Part shown: positions 38,847 through 45,663 of the stretch, one piece after another
Position numbering within the stretch: the stretch's first letter is position 1
Layout of the letters: each line of letters starts with the position of its first letter
Source: a phage
Strand: one strand, 5' to 3'
Assembly (NCBI GenBank): GCA_012439925.1
Contig: GCA_012439925.1_4519.1
Length of the DNA stretch: 64,000 nucleotides
The notes under the pieces: model-generated
What the model was told of the DNA's origin: nothing
Database searches by the model: none
Seen by the model: only the letters and a program-made list of their open reading frames with translations
Translations under genes and position numbers: made by a program

Positions 38847-39347
38847 ATGAATATGCAATTGATTACTAACGATATGGTTGTGGCAGCATTTGGTGATTCT
38901 ACAGATGGAATCCGAGTCTTTAAGAAAGGCCGTGCAGTCGGTTATCTTACAGACCTTCGTACTACTCTAGCGAAAAATGCTAAAAAGAAGTTAAAGCAAA
39001 AGGAATATTCAACACGTTACACCGAAGAGAAACGTGAAGCAATGCCGGAAGCAGTTAATGCTATGGTAGAATTTCTTCAAAACAATTTGACTAAATATGA
39101 CGCTAATGTGTTCATTAATATTAGTCAACCAAACGTACATATCGCAGGTATAAAATTCTACATTATTTGCGACCCTCTTACCGACAAATTCAACCGCCTC
39201 GGAATCTCAAGCCCGTATCATACAGCAGAAGAGTTGTGTGTATTGTTTGAATCGTACAAAATCCAGTGTGATGGTTTGAAAACCGTTCTTATCAATGGAT
39301 TATCCCGAGATGAAATCATTGAGATTATTAAAACATGCTTAAAGTAA
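38847..39347 (+). CDS. alc: Alc-like transcription termination factor (host transcription shutoff)
   Basis: Start trimmed to MNMQLITNDMVV with RBS GAGGAG; 166 aa (T4 Alc 167 aa); position between rnlA and pseT. Confidence 0.6.
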   Translation: MNMQLITNDMVVAAFGDSTDGIRVFKKGRAVGYLTDLRTTLAKNAKKKLKQKEYSTRYTEEKREAMPEAVNAMVEFLQNNLTKYDANVFINISQPNVHIAGIKFYIICDPLTDKFNRLGISSPYHTAEELCVLFESYKIQCDGLKTVLINGLSRDEIIEIIKTCLK

Positions 39348-39691
39348 ATCCGATTTATGCTATAGTAGCAGCTTTTGCTCTAGTTTCTACGGTAACAATA
39401 GTTGTCTTAAACAACAAAGTTGATTCGTTGAATACTGAATTAGCTTCTGTTAAAAAGACCGCTAAAAACAATGCTAAAGTATTAGACGACTTCAAAGCTC
39501 AATATCAGTCAATCGAAGAAATGACTTACAAGAATCGTGTTTTAGTTGACCAACTTAAGGCCGAAAATGAAAAGCTCCGTAAGGATTCGAAGAAGAAGAA
39601 CGTGGTGGCAAGTAAACCAGGATTGGTCGAAAAACAAATCAACAAGTCCTTCGATTCCTTTGCAGAAGACCTCAGGAAGCTCTCAGAATGA
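39335..39691 (+). CDS. i-spanin (inner-membrane spanin, pseT.3-like)
   Basis: N-terminal transmembrane helix followed by coiled-coil periplasmic domain; immediately precedes a lipoprotein ORF. Confidence 0.7.
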   Translation: MLKVNPIYAIVAAFALVSTVTIVVLNNKVDSLNTELASVKKTAKNNAKVLDDFKAQYQSIEEMTYKNRVLVDQLKAENEKLRKDSKKKNVVASKPGLVEKQINKSFDSFAEDLRKLSE

Positions 39692-39978
39692 TTAAATTAA
39701 CCGCAGTTGTATTATCTATTGGTATTTTGGCTGGATGTGCCCAGGATGTGCCCTTAAGCCCTAAAGAAACTTTACATCCGCCATGGCCTGAATCTATTGT
39801 TGAATATAACCAGAAATGGCAAGTAAAGGTTATTGATGGTAATCCATGGGTTGGAATGCCATTTGAAGACTCTCAAGAATTTCGTATCTGGTTAAACGAC
39901 GTAAAAAGATATGTACATGACCAGAAGACTATGATATGTTATTATCGTAGTGGTTTAAAAGAGGAAAAATGCCAATGA
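39688..39978 (+). CDS. o-spanin (outer-membrane lipoprotein, pseT.2-like)
   Basis: Signal peptide with lipobox LAGC; small proline-containing periplasmic domain; overlaps the i-spanin stop. Confidence 0.7.
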   Translation: MIKLTAVVLSIGILAGCAQDVPLSPKETLHPPWPESIVEYNQKWQVKVIDGNPWVGMPFEDSQEFRIWLNDVKRYVHDQKTMICYYRSGLKEEKCQ

Positions 39979-40193
39979 CTAAAGAACAGCATGAATACAT
40001 TAAAGGGCTTATCTATGAATCTGAAATGGCGGCTATGATTTATGGGCGCCAGATTCAACGATTAGAATCTTTGCCTCCGACTAATGACCGCTTGTTAGTT
40101 CAGTCTCGTGCTAATCTGAAAAATGAATATCAGAATAAGTGGGCAGTAGCGACTAAAGCTCTTCACGAGTATATTGAATCTTTAGTAAAATAG
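39969..40193 (+). CDS. hypothetical small protein
   Basis: 74-aa ORF overlapping the o-spanin stop. Confidence 0.45.
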   Translation: MPMTKEQHEYIKGLIYESEMAAMIYGRQIQRLESLPPTNDRLLVQSRANLKNEYQNKWAVATKALHEYIESLVK

Positions 40194-40228
40194 TTTACAA
40201 ACTCTCAGGAGCAGAGTATAATGCTCCT
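40193..40228 (+). promoter_or_regulatory. T4-type early promoter with inverted repeat around TATAAT
   Basis: GTTTAC 40193-40198, TATAAT 40217-40222, inverted repeat AGGAGCA / TGCTCCT; near-copy of 11870-11906. Confidence 0.55.
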
Positions 40229-40250
40229 ATGGATAATTGAGGAAATCTAA

Positions 40251-40549
40251 ATGAAAACATTACTAGAGAATTACATCAAACGGTCTGATGAGTATATTGA
40301 TATCTGCCGTGGAATGTCACTTGGCAATTATGACAAAGATGCAGCAAAGGCACTAGATGAAGCAGGTAAAGCTCTTCGTAAAGCTGCTAAAGAAAAAGGG
40401 TTGGATTTGCAACAACTCAAAAGTCATATGATTAAATTTATTTCTTCAAACGTTAGAAGTACGTCAATTAATAAAAACGTTGCTGAAATTAATAAAGACC
40501 GGCGCGAGCATAACATTCGTATTCTTGAAATTTTCTTAGGAATAAAATA

Positions 40550-40550
<1 letters not shown>
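40251..40550 (+). CDS. hypothetical protein
   Basis: 99-aa ORF, RBS GAGGAAA. Confidence 0.45.
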
Positions 40551-41636
<1,086 letters not shown>

Positions 41637-41637
<1 letters not shown>

Positions 41638-41828
41638 TGAAACGATTATATGAAGTGATTGAGGCCATAGAACAGCATAAAGAATATTTGTTTGTAGCCT
41701 GGCCTTTAGTAAATGGACAGTTCGGTATTGATGTGCTGGACTATGAGCATGAAGAACGTTTGGACGGTGGTATATTTGATAACGTCGACCAGGCAATTGA
41801 ATGGTTAAATGAAAACTATGTACGATAA
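41637..41828 (+). CDS. hypothetical small acidic protein
   Basis: 63-aa ORF, net charge about -9. Confidence 0.4.
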
Positions 41829-42033
41829 ACATCATGAAATCGAAGATGAAGCATACAAAATGCTTCGTAAACTAGTGGGACTTAATATGAGTCCTACATT
41901 AATCAACAAACTCGCAGGAATTCGTAATGATCTGAATACTCGTTACAAAGGCGAATATCATGTAGAGTTTGTTCCTGTAGGTGAACCGACCGAGCGATTT
42001 GTTGTTCGAGTTAAAGTAAATACTGTACACTGA
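41809..42033 (+). CDS. hypothetical small protein
   Basis: 74-aa ORF. Confidence 0.4.
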   Translation: MKTMYDKHHEIEDEAYKMLRKLVGLNMSPTLINKLAGIRNDLNTRYKGEYHVEFVPVGEPTERFVVRVKVNTVH

Positions 42034-42040
42034 GGTAATT

Positions 42041-42316
42041 ATGTTCCCAACTTATTCTGAAATTGTAAAGGTAGTCTTCAGTCAGATTATTGCTAATAAT
42101 ATGTTTGAAGTGCTTGATAATGCAGCCGAACTCAGAGTTCATGCTCAACTAACTCATGTACTCAATGCTTTGCTCCCAGACCAAGTAGATTCTATTGCTA
42201 TTACTCTTCTCCCTGGGTCTGCACACGTCATAGTGGTATTTGATCTTGACGGCGATTTAGTTATCCAATGTGATATCAATTTCGGTACACAAAAAATTGA
42301 ATGCAAAGCAATTTAA
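42041..42316 (+). CDS. hypothetical small acidic protein
   Basis: 91-aa ORF with RBS GAGGTAA. Confidence 0.45.
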   Translation: MFPTYSEIVKVVFSQIIANNMFEVLDNAAELRVHAQLTHVLNALLPDQVDSIAITLLPGSAHVIVVFDLDGDLVIQCDINFGTQKIECKAI

Positions 42317-42318
42317 TG

Positions 42319-42348
42319 GTTTACAACATGGTGGAGTTGTGATACTAT
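42319..42348 (+). promoter_or_regulatory. T4-type early promoter
   Basis: GTTTAC 42319-42324, 18-bp spacer, TACTAT 42343-42348. Confidence 0.55.
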
Positions 42349-42376
42349 AACTCTACCAACAAATGAGGAAATAGAA

Positions 42377-42613
42377 ATGCTAAGTGAAAACCCAATTACA
42401 GTACACGAATTTCAGATTAAAGTAAAAGAATTTGCTCAAGCACTCATCAATAAAGTGTCTGAACGTTTCCAAGATGCAACATTACGAGTTATTCAAGAAT
42501 CTCCACGTTCTTTTCTCATAATCGTTAATCCTAAAGATGGTGACCAAATTACTAATCTTAAATTAGGCAGTGATGGTCTTGTTGAAGCAACTCGAGTATA
42601 TGGAACACTATAA
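42377..42613 (+). CDS. hypothetical small protein
   Basis: 78-aa ORF, RBS GAGGAAA. Confidence 0.45.
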   Translation: MLSENPITVHEFQIKVKEFAQALINKVSERFQDATLRVIQESPRSFLIIVNPKDGDQITNLKLGSDGLVEATRVYGTL

Positions 42614-42733
42614 TGAGAGCTATCTCATTACTATCGAGAATGGTCATAAATCTGAGCACTACCAACTTAGCCTATCTAATCCGGTTAAAGGTATTGTTGA
42701 ATCAGAATCTGTTTATATCTCCTAAGGATTGTT

Positions 42734-43726
42734 ATGTTACCTGTCATCAGAAAACTTATTTCTCCAAAAGAACTGGCTGAGATTATTCCTTTGTCGGAAG
42801 CTTACGCATCACAAGTGGCTTCTCATCGCGAACAAGTTAATTCGATTATGAACGGTGAAGACCCACGCAAACTTATTGTTGTAGGTCCTTGTTCAATTCA
42901 TGACCCTATTGCTGCTGTTGAATACGGCAAACGTCTGGCTGAACTTCAAACTCGTCTTCCTAATGTTCTGTTAGTGATGCGCGTTTATTTTGAAAAGCCT
43001 CGAACTACCGTAGGTTGGAAAGGTCTTGTAAATGATCCATATCTTGACGGAAGTTTTGATATGAACCACGGTCTTATAGTTGCACGAACATTGTGTCGTA
43101 AACTTCTACGTATGGGACTTCCATTAGCAACTGAAGTATTAGACCCATTCACGATTAAGTATCTTTCTGGTATTTTCTCATGGGTTGCTATTGGCGCCCG
43201 TACGACTGAAAGTCAGACACATCGTGAAATTGCTTCAGGTCTACCGATGTGCGTAGGCTTCAAGAACGCAACCAATGGTTCTATTAAAGTAGCTACAGAC
43301 GCGATGTATAGTGCCGCCTGGCCTCATCGGTATATGGGTATGGACGTCGATGGTACTGTAGGCATTGTTGAAGCTGAAGGTAATCAGAATACGCATATCG
43401 TATTGCGTGGCGGGACCAACGGCCCGAACTATCATTCTTCTGATATTCAAGAAGCTTCTAACAAAGCAAGGGCAGTAGGTCTGAATCATTATGTAATGGT
43501 TGACTGTAGCCATGCAAACGCTGATGGGCATTATAGCAATCAAATTGGTATTGGTAAAAATTTAGCAGCTAATGATTTGGTCAAAGGAATTATGATAGAA
43601 TCATTCCTACATGAAGGAAATCAAAAAATTTCCGATAATATGTCCTATGGCGTTTCCGTTACCGATGCGTGCATCAGTTGGGAACAAACTAAAGAGCTGT
43701 TAACTTATATTAATAAGGTTCAATAA
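42734..43726 (+). CDS. class I 3-deoxy-D-arabino-heptulosonate-7-phosphate (DAHP) synthase, AroG/AroF/AroH-like
   Basis: 330 aa; signature motifs GPCSIHD, RVYFEKPRTTVGWKGL, GARTTESQ, DCSHAN, ESFLHEGNQ and DACISWE, with metal ligands (Cys, His, Glu, Asp) in place; shorter than E. coli AroG (350 aa), including at the N-terminus. Confidence 0.8.
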   Translation: MLPVIRKLISPKELAEIIPLSEAYASQVASHREQVNSIMNGEDPRKLIVVGPCSIHDPIAAVEYGKRLAELQTRLPNVLLVMRVYFEKPRTTVGWKGLVNDPYLDGSFDMNHGLIVARTLCRKLLRMGLPLATEVLDPFTIKYLSGIFSWVAIGARTTESQTHREIASGLPMCVGFKNATNGSIKVATDAMYSAAWPHRYMGMDVDGTVGIVEAEGNQNTHIVLRGGTNGPNYHSSDIQEASNKARAVGLNHYVMVDCSHANADGHYSNQIGIGKNLAANDLVKGIMIESFLHEGNQKISDNMSYGVSVTDACISWEQTKELLTYINKVQ

Positions 43727-44307
43727 TGAAAGCTAGCACATACCTTCAGATTGCATATCTGATTTCTCAAGAATCAAAATGTTGTTCATGGAAAGTTGGC
43801 GCAGTCATTGAAAAAGATGGGCGCATTATTTCTACTGGGTATAACGGTTCACCTGCAGGTGGCGTTAACTGTTGCGAACATGCATCTGAAAATGGTTGGT
43901 TGAAGAATAAACCAATCCCAGTCATCGTTGCTGGGCATAAAGAAGGCACTACAGCATTTGGACGGGCCGATAATTTTGTTTTGGCTAAAGAACATCGGGC
44001 TGCTCATAGTGCATGGTCTGCCAATAACGAAATCCATGCGGAACTGAATGCAATTTTGTTTGCAGCTCGTAAAGGTAATTCTATTGAAGGTGCTACGTTG
44101 TATACGACACTTTCTCCATGTCCTGATTGCACTAAAGCTATTACACAGTCAGGTATTAAAAAGGTTGTATATGCAGAATTATATGACCGATCTCCTGAAA
44201 ATTGGGCAGACATTCTTAAACAAGCTGGTATTGAAGTAATTCAGTACTCTCGTAATAATCTTCGTTCTCTGAATTGGGAACAAATCCGAAACTTTTGTGG
44301 TGAATAA
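43726..44307 (+). CDS. cd: dCMP deaminase
   Basis: 193 aa as in T4; zinc-binding HAE and SPCPDC motifs. Confidence 0.95.
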   Translation: MKASTYLQIAYLISQESKCCSWKVGAVIEKDGRIISTGYNGSPAGGVNCCEHASENGWLKNKPIPVIVAGHKEGTTAFGRADNFVLAKEHRAAHSAWSANNEIHAELNAILFAARKGNSIEGATLYTTLSPCPDCTKAITQSGIKKVVYAELYDRSPENWADILKQAGIEVIQYSRNNLRSLNWEQIRNFCGE

Positions 44308-44308
44308 T

Positions 44309-44605
44309 ATGATTTTAACTGAACAAGAAACTATGGTTCTTCGTGAACGTATTAAAACTATTCTGTCTGTAGGCGTTCATTGTGTTGTATTTGAAAAGGC
44401 TAACGGTGATGTTCGTACGATGTTTGCCTCCCGTGATGAACTTGAAGTCAAATACGAAAATAACAATCCGGCAACAGAAGTTCGTTCTGAACCTCGTGAA
44501 TCAGTTCGAGCATTCGATACCAAGTTAGGTCAGTGGCGTTCTTTCCGCCTTGATAAAGTAATTTCGGTTGATGGTACTCCGGTAGAACGTTTGCTTCTTA
44601 TGTAA
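44309..44605 (+). CDS. hypothetical protein
   Basis: 98 aa from ATG just after the cd stop. Confidence 0.45.
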   Translation: MILTEQETMVLRERIKTILSVGVHCVVFEKANGDVRTMFASRDELEVKYENNNPATEVRSEPRESVRAFDTKLGQWRSFRLDKVISVDGTPVERLLLM

Positions 44606-44662
44606 TATGCTTTACGAATAGTATGGTATTATTAATCTATCGTCAAACAACAAGGAAATAAG

Positions 44663-44995
44663 ATGTCTGAAGTACAACTCCCAATTCGTGCTGTTGGTGA
44701 ATATGTCATTCTGGTTTCTGAACCCGCTCAAGCAGGTGATGAAGAAGTTACCGAATCAGGACTTGTGATTGGTAAACGTGTTCAAGGTGAAGTTCCTGAA
44801 CTATGTATAGTTCATTCTGTAGGTCCTGATGTTCCTGAAGGTTTTGTTGAAGTCGGTGATTTGACTCCACTACCAGTTGGACAAATTCGAAATGTTCCAC
44901 ATCCATTTGTGGCTTTAGGACTTAAACAACCTAAAGAAATTAAACAGAAATTCGTAACATGCCACTATAAAGCTATTCCGTGTCTTTATAAGTGA
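44663..44995 (+). CDS. 31: co-chaperonin gp31 (GroES analogue for capsid folding)
   Basis: 110 aa; near-identical to T4 gp31 as recalled. Confidence 0.9.
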
Positions 44996-45119
44996 TATAA
45001 ATAACTATATGAAGAGAACACTCTTCTAAGCGGTAGCCTACAACTGAGAGACTTGTCGAAAGAAGGTGAAATTCAGACGAACGTGGCTACTAAATATTAT
45101 CTCGAATTGAGAATTTAAA

Positions 45120-45368
45120 ATGATTAAACAATTACAACACGCTCTTGAACTGCAACGAAACGCATGGAATAACGGTCACGAAAACTACGGCGCGTCAATT
45201 GATGTTGAAGCCGAAGCACTGGAAATCCTGCATTATTTCAAACATCTGAACCCGGTACAGGCAGCTTTGGCCTCTGAACTGGAAGCAAAAGATGAACTGA
45301 AATATGCTAAGCCTTTGGCTTCTGCAGCTCGTAAAGCAGTACGTCATTTTGTTATTACCCTTAAATAA
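45120..45368 (+). CDS. rIII: lysis inhibition accessory protein rIII
   Basis: 82 aa as in T4; MIKQLQxALELQRNAWNNGHENYGASIDVEAEALEIL matches T4 rIII as recalled. Confidence 0.85.
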   Translation: MIKQLQHALELQRNAWNNGHENYGASIDVEAEALEILHYFKHLNPVQAALASELEAKDELKYAKPLASAARKAVRHFVITLK

Positions 45369-45663
45369 GTTTTAGGTGATTCGCTACCTTAAGTGCGGCT
45401 AGAAAATCGAGGAGCCGTCGAACTGTCTGATTAATGATTTGCGAATCATTATAGTTTTAAGGCCCCGGCAGTTTTACGGTGTACCTCTTGAATGTATTTT
45501 GTACTATCACGCGTCAGAAAAAGGTTATCTGTCTAAGTCGTGGTTGGTATGATGACGGGTTTATGGTTATCCTGTCGTTAAATATCCAAAACCTATGTTC
45601 CCCTTGAGGGCTTGCGCAGGCAATGTCAATAAGTCCTGCATTTTCATTTAAAGAGAATTTATA

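Follow-up and report, generated by a model that had tools for sequence, protein, structure and literature searches.

Genes between pseT and cd

The window, a stretch of 64,000 nucleotides of phage DNA, belongs to a Mosigvirus, an RB69-like T-even phage. Its segment from 40700 to 44400 exhibits 99.4% identity to Escherichia phage FP43, and most of this segment is covered by 140 phage records. Between pseT and the gene for DAHP synthase (DAHPS), the original prediction described a cluster of small open reading frames (ORFs), and those of 63, 74, 91, 78, and 41 aa were all present at the same coordinates in our ORF listing. All five lie on the plus strand, as do the DAHPS gene and the cassette features described below. 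The tight packing that had been described for this cluster is confirmed by the geometry of stops and starts. ORF1 (41637..41828, 63 aa) opens in a TAATG that it has in common with the pseT stop codon. ORF2 starts before ORF1 has ended, with an overlap of 11 nt from its conserved start (41818..42033, 71 aa, beginning MYDKHH) or of 20 nt in the 74-aa form that starts at 41809. After a gap of 7 nt, and preceded by GAGG, ORF3 (42041..42316, 91 aa) follows, and a spacer of 60 nt containing a promoter-like site separates it from ORF4 (42377..42613, 78 aa). The end of ORF4 is overlapped by 14 nt by ORF5 (42600..42725, 41 aa), the ATG of which lies within a 51-aa ORF that opens with GTG. Finally, the DAHPS gene (42734-43726) begins 8 nt after ORF5 with AAGGA in front of it, and its stop codon has a TAATG in common with the start of cd.

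The computed net charges of the products of ORF1 to ORF5 are -9, +2, -7, -1, and -4, respectively, and that of ORF2 becomes +1 when translation from 41818 is assumed. The values for ORF1 and ORF3 agree with the predicted charges of about -9 and about -7. Two of the four real proteins are indeed strongly acidic, but the description of the whole set as mostly acidic was somewhat generous, as the other two are at +2 and -1.

This interval is the Mosigvirus version of the accessory early-gene block that lies between pseT and cd in T4. The gene families in it are already known from Pfam, from PHROGs, and from the annotation of T4 and RB69. What is new is confined to the anatomy of the DAHPS-bearing cassette and of the cd.2 remnant within it, which is a recombination scar.

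Conserved families in a variable block

ORF1 to ORF4 each match a phage protein family at E values from 1e-33 to 1e-41. By sequence comparison, ORF1, ORF3, and ORF4 have their respective orthologues in T4 Cd.4, Cd.3, and Cd.2 (T4p221, T4p220, and T4p219; UniProt P39500, P39499, and P39498), and we regard our overall explanation of the locus as probable. ORF1 exhibits 52% identity to T4 Cd.4 (BLASTP, E 3e-27) and matches phrog_2360 over residues 1-63 (E 2e-33), while its database homologues carry PF26883; the full-length match and the place directly 3' of pseT put it in the Cd.4 family. ORF3 is 79% identical to T4 Cd.3 and belongs to DUF7355 (PF24051), with a score of 119.4 bits (gathering cut-off, 27) and an alignment that spans profile positions 1-93 of 93. 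Similarly, ORF4 is 65% identical to T4 Cd.2 and belongs to DUF7320 (PF24005), for which it scores 121.5 bits (gathering cut-off, 27) and aligns with profile positions 1-77 of 78; its allele is of the T4/Dhakavirus type. The order and strand of the three genes between pseT and cd are identical in T4, and the lengths of the products are comparable (63/66, 91/91, and 78/76 aa in the window and T4, respectively). T4 differs from the window in possessing cd.5 before cd.4 and cd.1 after cd.2, and in lacking ORF2, ORF5, and the DAHPS gene.

ORF2 is 100% identical to ORF227c of RB69, which occupies the same place between cd.4 and cd.3. Its full-length match to phrog_3609 (E 3.5e-41, alignment from residue 4), together with this slot, makes it a member of the ORF227c family, of which no counterpart was found in T4. 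Relatives were detected by tblastn in 338 phage records, and the hosts of the phages bearing them include Escherichia, Klebsiella, Enterobacter, Salmonella, Citrobacter, and Serratia. Because the matches across genera begin at residue 3-4, the conserved start is placed at 41818, which is 9 nt 3' of the start annotated for ORF227c in RB69. The family is narrow, with 1.84e9 proteins yielding 5 clusters at 50% identity, and Dhakavirus, Gelderlandvirus, Marfavirus, and Kanagawavirus carry it at the corresponding place. With three orthologues of T4 genes and one member of a widespread RB69 family among them, the four ORFs are no lineage-specific novelties. A common helix-then-strands pattern could also be read as a sign that the four families are diverged tandem paralogues, but this was rejected at the sequence level, as the hhalign probability was at most 3% for every pair.

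Judging from their substitution patterns, ORF1 to ORF4 are real protein genes under purifying selection. Across genera, pN/pS ranges from 0.17 to 0.70 at saturated synonymous sites, and ORF2 matches the enzymes PseT and Cd in its low dN. Within Mosigvirus, substitutions in the four genes are also mostly synonymous.

A gene-content matrix built from 30 loci revealed a conserved backbone with variable slots. The backbone that is kept reads pseT, (cd.5), cd.4, ORF227c, cd.3, cd.2, (cd.1 or DAHPS), cd. In T4-like and Dhakavirus genomes, an extra ORF of 175-186 aa occupies the cd.3/cd.2 spacer; cd.4 is missing from Marfavirus (for example, Potts1), and the block is rearranged in Serratia phage 4S. 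In addition, alleles have been swapped at cd.3 and cd.2, both within and between genera, and this deep allelic replacement makes cd.3 the best candidate of the block for a host-specific role. The interval had been likened to a hyperplastic pseT.x/cd.x zone of T4. It is a plastic accessory zone and it does hold cd.x genes, but pseT.1-3 lie upstream of pseT (39335-40193 in the window); in the T4 record, the genes run alc, pseT.3, pseT.2, pseT.1, pseT, cd.5, cd.4, cd.3, early promoter, cd.2, cd.1, cd.

Within the cd.3/cd.2 spacer, a consensus scan identified a promoter-like site on the plus strand at 42320..42348 (TTTACA-17-TACTAT with TG). Its sequence has the elements of a putative T4-type early promoter, namely a GTTTAC-like -35, a 17-nt spacer, and a TAnnAT -10, and the predicted promoter aligns in both place and sequence with the corresponding spacer of T4, for which an early promoter is annotated between cd.3 and cd.2. 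The -10 element of the promoter-like site is overlapped by a hairpin of 13 bp at 42329-42358 (dG -17 kcal/mol, z -2.5). ORF1 to ORF4 would be read from upstream early transcription as well as from this conserved internal early promoter, and they are linked by overlapping or near-adjacent stops and starts. The original prediction was open to refutation if its ORFs lacked conservation or evidence of translation. For ORF1, ORF3, and ORF4 neither is lacking: the supplements of PMC9697503 class T4 cd.2, cd.3, and cd.4 as early RNAs and record the detection of their proteins, with Cd.2 grouped among the early proteins and Cd.3 and Cd.4 among the middle ones.

Possible roles of the small proteins

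Knock-down of T4 cd.1-cd.5 by CRISPRi-ART is scored 'Not Fit' in the supplements of PMC11879866, that is, without fitness effect in a laboratory host, and the same supplements list the function of these genes as unknown. Our search of the literature on cd.2, cd.3, cd.4, and the DUF families yielded omics tables only and no functional study. No membrane segments were found in the small proteins, and no catalytic motifs were found in the products of ORF1 to ORF4. Searches of PDB sequences, with single sequences as well as with profiles, gave no match for any ORF. The same was true of PADLOC, the models of which describe defence rather than anti-defence, and of NCBIfam, while Rfam gave no match across 39500-45500 at E values up to 1.

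The predicted models of Cd.3 and Cd.2 are compact sandwiches of a helix and four strands. When the Cd.3 model was compared with BFVD by Foldseek, other DUF7355 proteins were returned, followed by marginal gp25/IraD-like viral matches. The likeness of Cd.3 to the IraD anti-adaptor and to gp25-like proteins (GPW_gp25) is a weak likeness of fold at 12% identity. A Pfam search of ORF3 returned DUF7355 alone and neither the IraD nor the GPW_gp25 family, and a profile search of PDB sequences with Cd.3 found neither IraD nor gp25. With regard to charge, the acidity of Cd.4 is kept across genera (net -5 to -14 in 63-71 aa), as is that of Cd.3 (net -3 to -9); conserved acidity of this kind is absent from the ORF2 and Cd.2 families.

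In view of their size, charge, and timing, the absence of catalytic motifs, the exchange of alleles, and the generic folds, we infer that the products of ORF1 to ORF4 are most likely stoichiometric binders. As such, they would, in certain hosts, modulate a macromolecule of the host or of the phage, and their role would be in host takeover or counter-defence. It is conceivable, although we put this forward tentatively, that at least one of the four serves in counter-defence or host takeover as a stoichiometric binder that has so far escaped recognition, and the very acidic Cd.4 and Cd.3 would be the best candidates. On its modelled fold, Cd.3 would act as an IraD-like anti-adaptor; if this is true, it would block a host regulator or a protease adaptor in the style of an anti-adaptor. 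If counter-defence is indeed involved, the swapping of cd.3 and cd.2 alleles would reflect an arms race.

The net charge that Cd.4 and Cd.3 keep across genera would also suit DNA mimics, that is, anti-restriction acidic inhibitors of the Ocr or Arn type that block a nuclease of the host or some other DNA-binding defence protein. The early expression of the T4 orthologues and the dispensability of the genes on K-12-type laboratory hosts are consistent with such a role. However, no sequence or fold match to known DNA mimics was obtained, and the alpha/beta sandwich modelled for Cd.3 is compact and globular instead of forming an elongated charge array, so we consider DNA mimicry unlikely. A role as accessory subunits or regulators of the co-transcribed enzymes PseT, dCMP deaminase, and, where present, DAHP synthase appears less likely still. 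The block does occupy the pseT-cd interval in all genera examined, and cd.2 stands directly 5' of the DAHPS gene wherever the latter occurs, but T-even gene order is conserved genome-wide, which makes adjacency weak evidence. Moreover, T4 retains cd.2 without a DAHPS gene, and members of the block are freely lost or swapped, as illustrated by the loss of cd.4 in Potts1, the exchange of cd.3 alleles, and the rearrangement in 4S. Most likely stoichiometric binders, Cd.4, ORF227c, Cd.3, and Cd.2 stay among the conserved and expressed yet dispensable T-even early proteins without an assigned function.

The DAHP synthase cassette and its cd.2 remnant

The DAHPS gene is carried on a 1113-nt cassette (42623..43735) that comprises a cd.2 remnant, the gene itself, and the right copy of a direct repeat. 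The repeat that bounds the cassette, TAATGARAGCTA, is a 12-mer pattern with two occurrences in the 64 kb, at 42611 and 43724, against 0.02 expected. The left copy, TAATGAGAGCTA (42611..42622), holds the stop of ORF4 together with a duplicate of the cd 5' end, and the right copy, TAATGAAAGCTA (43724-43735), forms the right end of the cassette. At the left junction TAATGAGAGCTA runs into TCTCATT, and at the right junction TAATGAAAGCTA runs into GCACATA. Mosigviruses without the cassette read CTATAATGAAAGCTAGCACA at the cd.2-cd junction; RB69, mar005P1, and ECO111 5-P are such phages, with neither ORF5 nor the DAHPS gene. Because ATGAAAGC.AGCAC is the cd 5' end conserved in every genus, the left repeat copy can be recognised as a duplicated cd start. 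Homology to a second cd.2 allele begins right after this copy, at codon 8 of ORF5.

ORF5 is a chimera. For codons 1-4, the end of ORF4 is read in the +1 frame, and codons 5-7 run across the stop of ORF4 and the duplicated cd 5' end. Codons 8-41 represent the 3' remnant of the second cd.2 allele, which is of the Kanagawavirus/Marfavirus type, so that the open frame of ORF5 is a real one but is inherited from a cd.2 gene. The predicted product read from the ATG at 42600 begins MEHYNESYLITIE (MEHYNES...), and the duplicated cd ATG at 42613 (MRAISLL...) opens a 55-aa ORF that runs out of frame over the DAHPS start. ORF5 matches DUF7320 at 28.8 bits (cut-off 27, E 1.2e-6) over profile positions 44-76 only, which, judged by the ORF4 model, leaves an incomplete domain with strands 2-4 and without the helix or strand 1; hhalign against the cd.2 profile gives a probability of 95% (E 1.7e-8). 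Identity to the C-termini of Cd.2 is 54% for CIP9, 47% for Potts1, and 46% for PEi20, compared with 28% for the neighbouring ORF4. From these alignments, ORF5 is no independent family but the remnant of the 3' third to half of a second cd.2 allele, and on its partial DUF7320 match it drops out as the possible fifth member of the set in the original prediction. Two other origins within the cd.2 family were considered and rejected. A tandem duplicate of ORF4 does not agree with the lower identity to ORF4 than to CIP9 Cd.2, and a remnant of an ancestral Mosigvirus cd.2 does not agree with the cd.2 of RB69 itself, which is of the T4/Dhakavirus type.

CIP9, Potts1, and PEi20 also carry the closest DAHPS genes. 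The DNA of ORF5 is colinear with the 3' end of cd.2 in CIP9 and PEi20 through the start of DAHPS; more broadly, the 3' half of cd.2 and the DAHPS gene of Kanagawavirus (CIP9, PEi20) and Marfavirus (Potts1) are colinear with ORF5 and DAHPS in the window. In Kanagawavirus, the cd.2 stop is separated from the DAHPS ATG by 8-9 nt, as in the window, and the window DAHPS exhibits 77% identity to that of Kanagawavirus and 67% to that of Marfavirus. Unlike these two genera, the window retains only the last ~34 codons of this cd.2 allele, and the fragment lies behind a complete cd.2 of the T4/Dhakavirus type, to which it is joined via the duplicated cd 5' end. In the 7 records examined, drawn from six genera (Mosigvirus, Marfavirus, Kanagawavirus, Kagamiyamavirus, Winklervirus, and Bragavirus), the DAHPS gene lies directly 3' of a cd.2 or cd.2-like gene. 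The DAHPS gene had been described as a lineage-specific insertion. Its insertion is borne out by the three Mosigviruses that lack it, but its presence in the same slot in six genera speaks against lineage specificity. Altogether, 213 records match the DAHP synthase, of which 140 have the Mosigvirus type (at least 95% identity), and ORF5 is confined to the same number of records, all of them from Mosigvirus.

Synonymous diversity among the DAHPS genes is confined to 2-5 of 226 sites, whereas the corresponding counts are 16-30 of 186 sites for pseT and 16-31 of 130 sites for cd. When compared with RB69, the window contains a patch of ~6% divergence from ~42500 to ~44300, with flanks diverged by 0-3%. 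This low diversity, together with the diverged patch, indicates at the sequence level that the cassette spread recently by recombination among Mosigviruses. The DAHPS gene brought the cd.2 fragment along on the 1113-nt cassette. The right end of the cassette is homologous, lying in the cd 5' end, and the left end was joined illegitimately, with 10-12 nt of the cd start being duplicated. With respect to its history, the cassette may have been inserted into the cd.2-cd junction, or it may have been deleted between the repeats in RB69-like genomes.

ORF5 itself is most likely functionless, or would at most maintain the flow of ribosomes to the DAHPS start. Its intactness could be taken to suggest otherwise, namely that ORF5 encodes a functional micro-protein, a free three-stranded beta fragment that, for example, pairs with or poisons Cd.2 or binds DAHP synthase. 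The reading frame is intact in 140 of 140 cassette-bearing records at no less than 92% amino acid identity. The synonymous TAC>TAT change in ORF4 on which its ATG depends is present in every cassette-bearing genome examined and absent from cassette-less ones. Furthermore, most substitutions are silent when read in the ORF5 frame, and in the alternative frame they are non-synonymous. However, the cassette is almost without diversity, so that intactness carries little weight. Polymorphism within ORF5 amounts to 2 synonymous sites plus replacements confined to codon 13 (E13V and E13M), where E, V, and M are thus all found already, and so few changes do not allow a test of selection. The TAC>TAT change is part of a five-site haplotype tied to the cassette, and linkage thus explains the ATG. 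No Shine-Dalgarno sequence precedes ORF5, the predicted product has strands 2-4 only and misses the helix that would pack against the sheet, and Marfavirus and Kanagawavirus possess a DAHPS gene without such an ORF. On balance, a functional micro-protein is improbable. Programmed +1 frameshifting that would fuse ORF4 to ORF5 and yield a 115-aa Cd.2 carrying an additional beta unit is highly improbable. One metagenomic protein is exactly such a fusion, via a 1-nt frameshift (P0031, 115 aa), but it is a single member from a single 2.8-kb contig, as would be expected of a mutant or of an assembly error of 1 nt. Neither a slippery site nor a structure that would stimulate frameshifting is evident in 42580-42615, and cassette-less genomes make the 78-aa protein only.

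In existing records, ORF5 is annotated, in its 41-aa or 51-aa form, as a hypothetical protein in ~140 Mosigvirus genomes, and in one record as 'olfactory receptor-like'. This annotation should be flagged as a cd.2 remnant.

With a remnant of cd.2 rather than a gene of its own at its left end, the cassette bears on how metabolic genes travel among T-even phages. The T-even DAHPS gene travels together with the adjoining end of cd.2 as one unit, and in all 7 records compared it occupies one fixed slot. The Mosigvirus cassette represents a clean example of the spread of an auxiliary metabolic gene between phage genera by one homologous and one illegitimate crossover.

Allelic divergence and insertion around cd.3

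The cd.3 gene (ORF3) occurs as two deeply diverged alleles within Mosigvirus (window 41950-42300 and comparison loci L027-L030). Compared with phages LF82-2, AV112, ST2, and ECO111 5-P, the window differs at approximately 35% of nucleotides (pS ~0.7, pN ~0.18), a divergence confined to 41950-42300, while the flanks differ by no more than 3% in the same four phages. The divergence represents a localised allelic replacement.

The adjoining cd.3/cd.2 spacer contains a 13 bp hairpin (42329-42358; dG -17 kcal/mol, z -2.5) that overlaps the -10 element of a conserved early promoter, and T4 retains this hairpin, its stem altered at some bases. The spacer of T4-like and Dhakavirus genomes also holds an extra ORF of 175-186 aa (pseT-cd loci L005 4339-4866 and L016 4059-4619), for which a Pfam match was not found. 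This promoter-bearing spacer is a second insertion hot spot.

The ORF227c family and the pseT upstream region

The ORF227c family (ORF2, 41818-42033) is better conserved across genera than PseT; as one example, identity with Potts1 is 75% for ORF227c and 67% for PseT. Its N-terminus is near-invariant (MYxKHHEVEEEAYK), its C-terminus carries the motif V(H/N)TVH, and its clustered histidines could make up a metal site.

Further upstream, the top-scoring sigma-70-like site of the region, TTTACA-17-TATAAT (40194-40222; 11/12 matches), lies just upstream of a 99-aa ORF of the RB69 ORF231c family (40251-40550) and is probably an early promoter from which pseT and the cd.x block are transcribed. For pseT itself, the longest ORF begins with GTG 40738 and encodes 299 aa, matching the 301 aa of T4; a shorter product of 258 aa from an internal ATG is annotated in several deposited Mosigvirus records (FP43 and ST2).

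The DAHP synthase slot and its left boundary

The DAHP synthase gene occupies one slot in six T-even genera, immediately 3' of cd.2 and 5' of cd.1 or cd (window 42734-43726 compared with loci L017 and L021-L025), and synonymous diversity of its cassette in Mosigvirus is much lower than that of flanking pseT and cd. A single metagenomic protein, P0031 (Logan contig, 115 aa), fuses ORF4 and ORF5 via a 1-nt frameshift near ORF4 codon 68; this fusion could reflect either misassembly or natural variation. Where ORF4 stops, the TAATG contains a duplicated cd start codon, from which an out-of-frame ORF of 55 aa (42613-42780) extends past position 42734, the DAHP synthase start. Re-initiation by ribosomes at this duplicated codon, if it happens, could interfere with translation of DAHP synthase.
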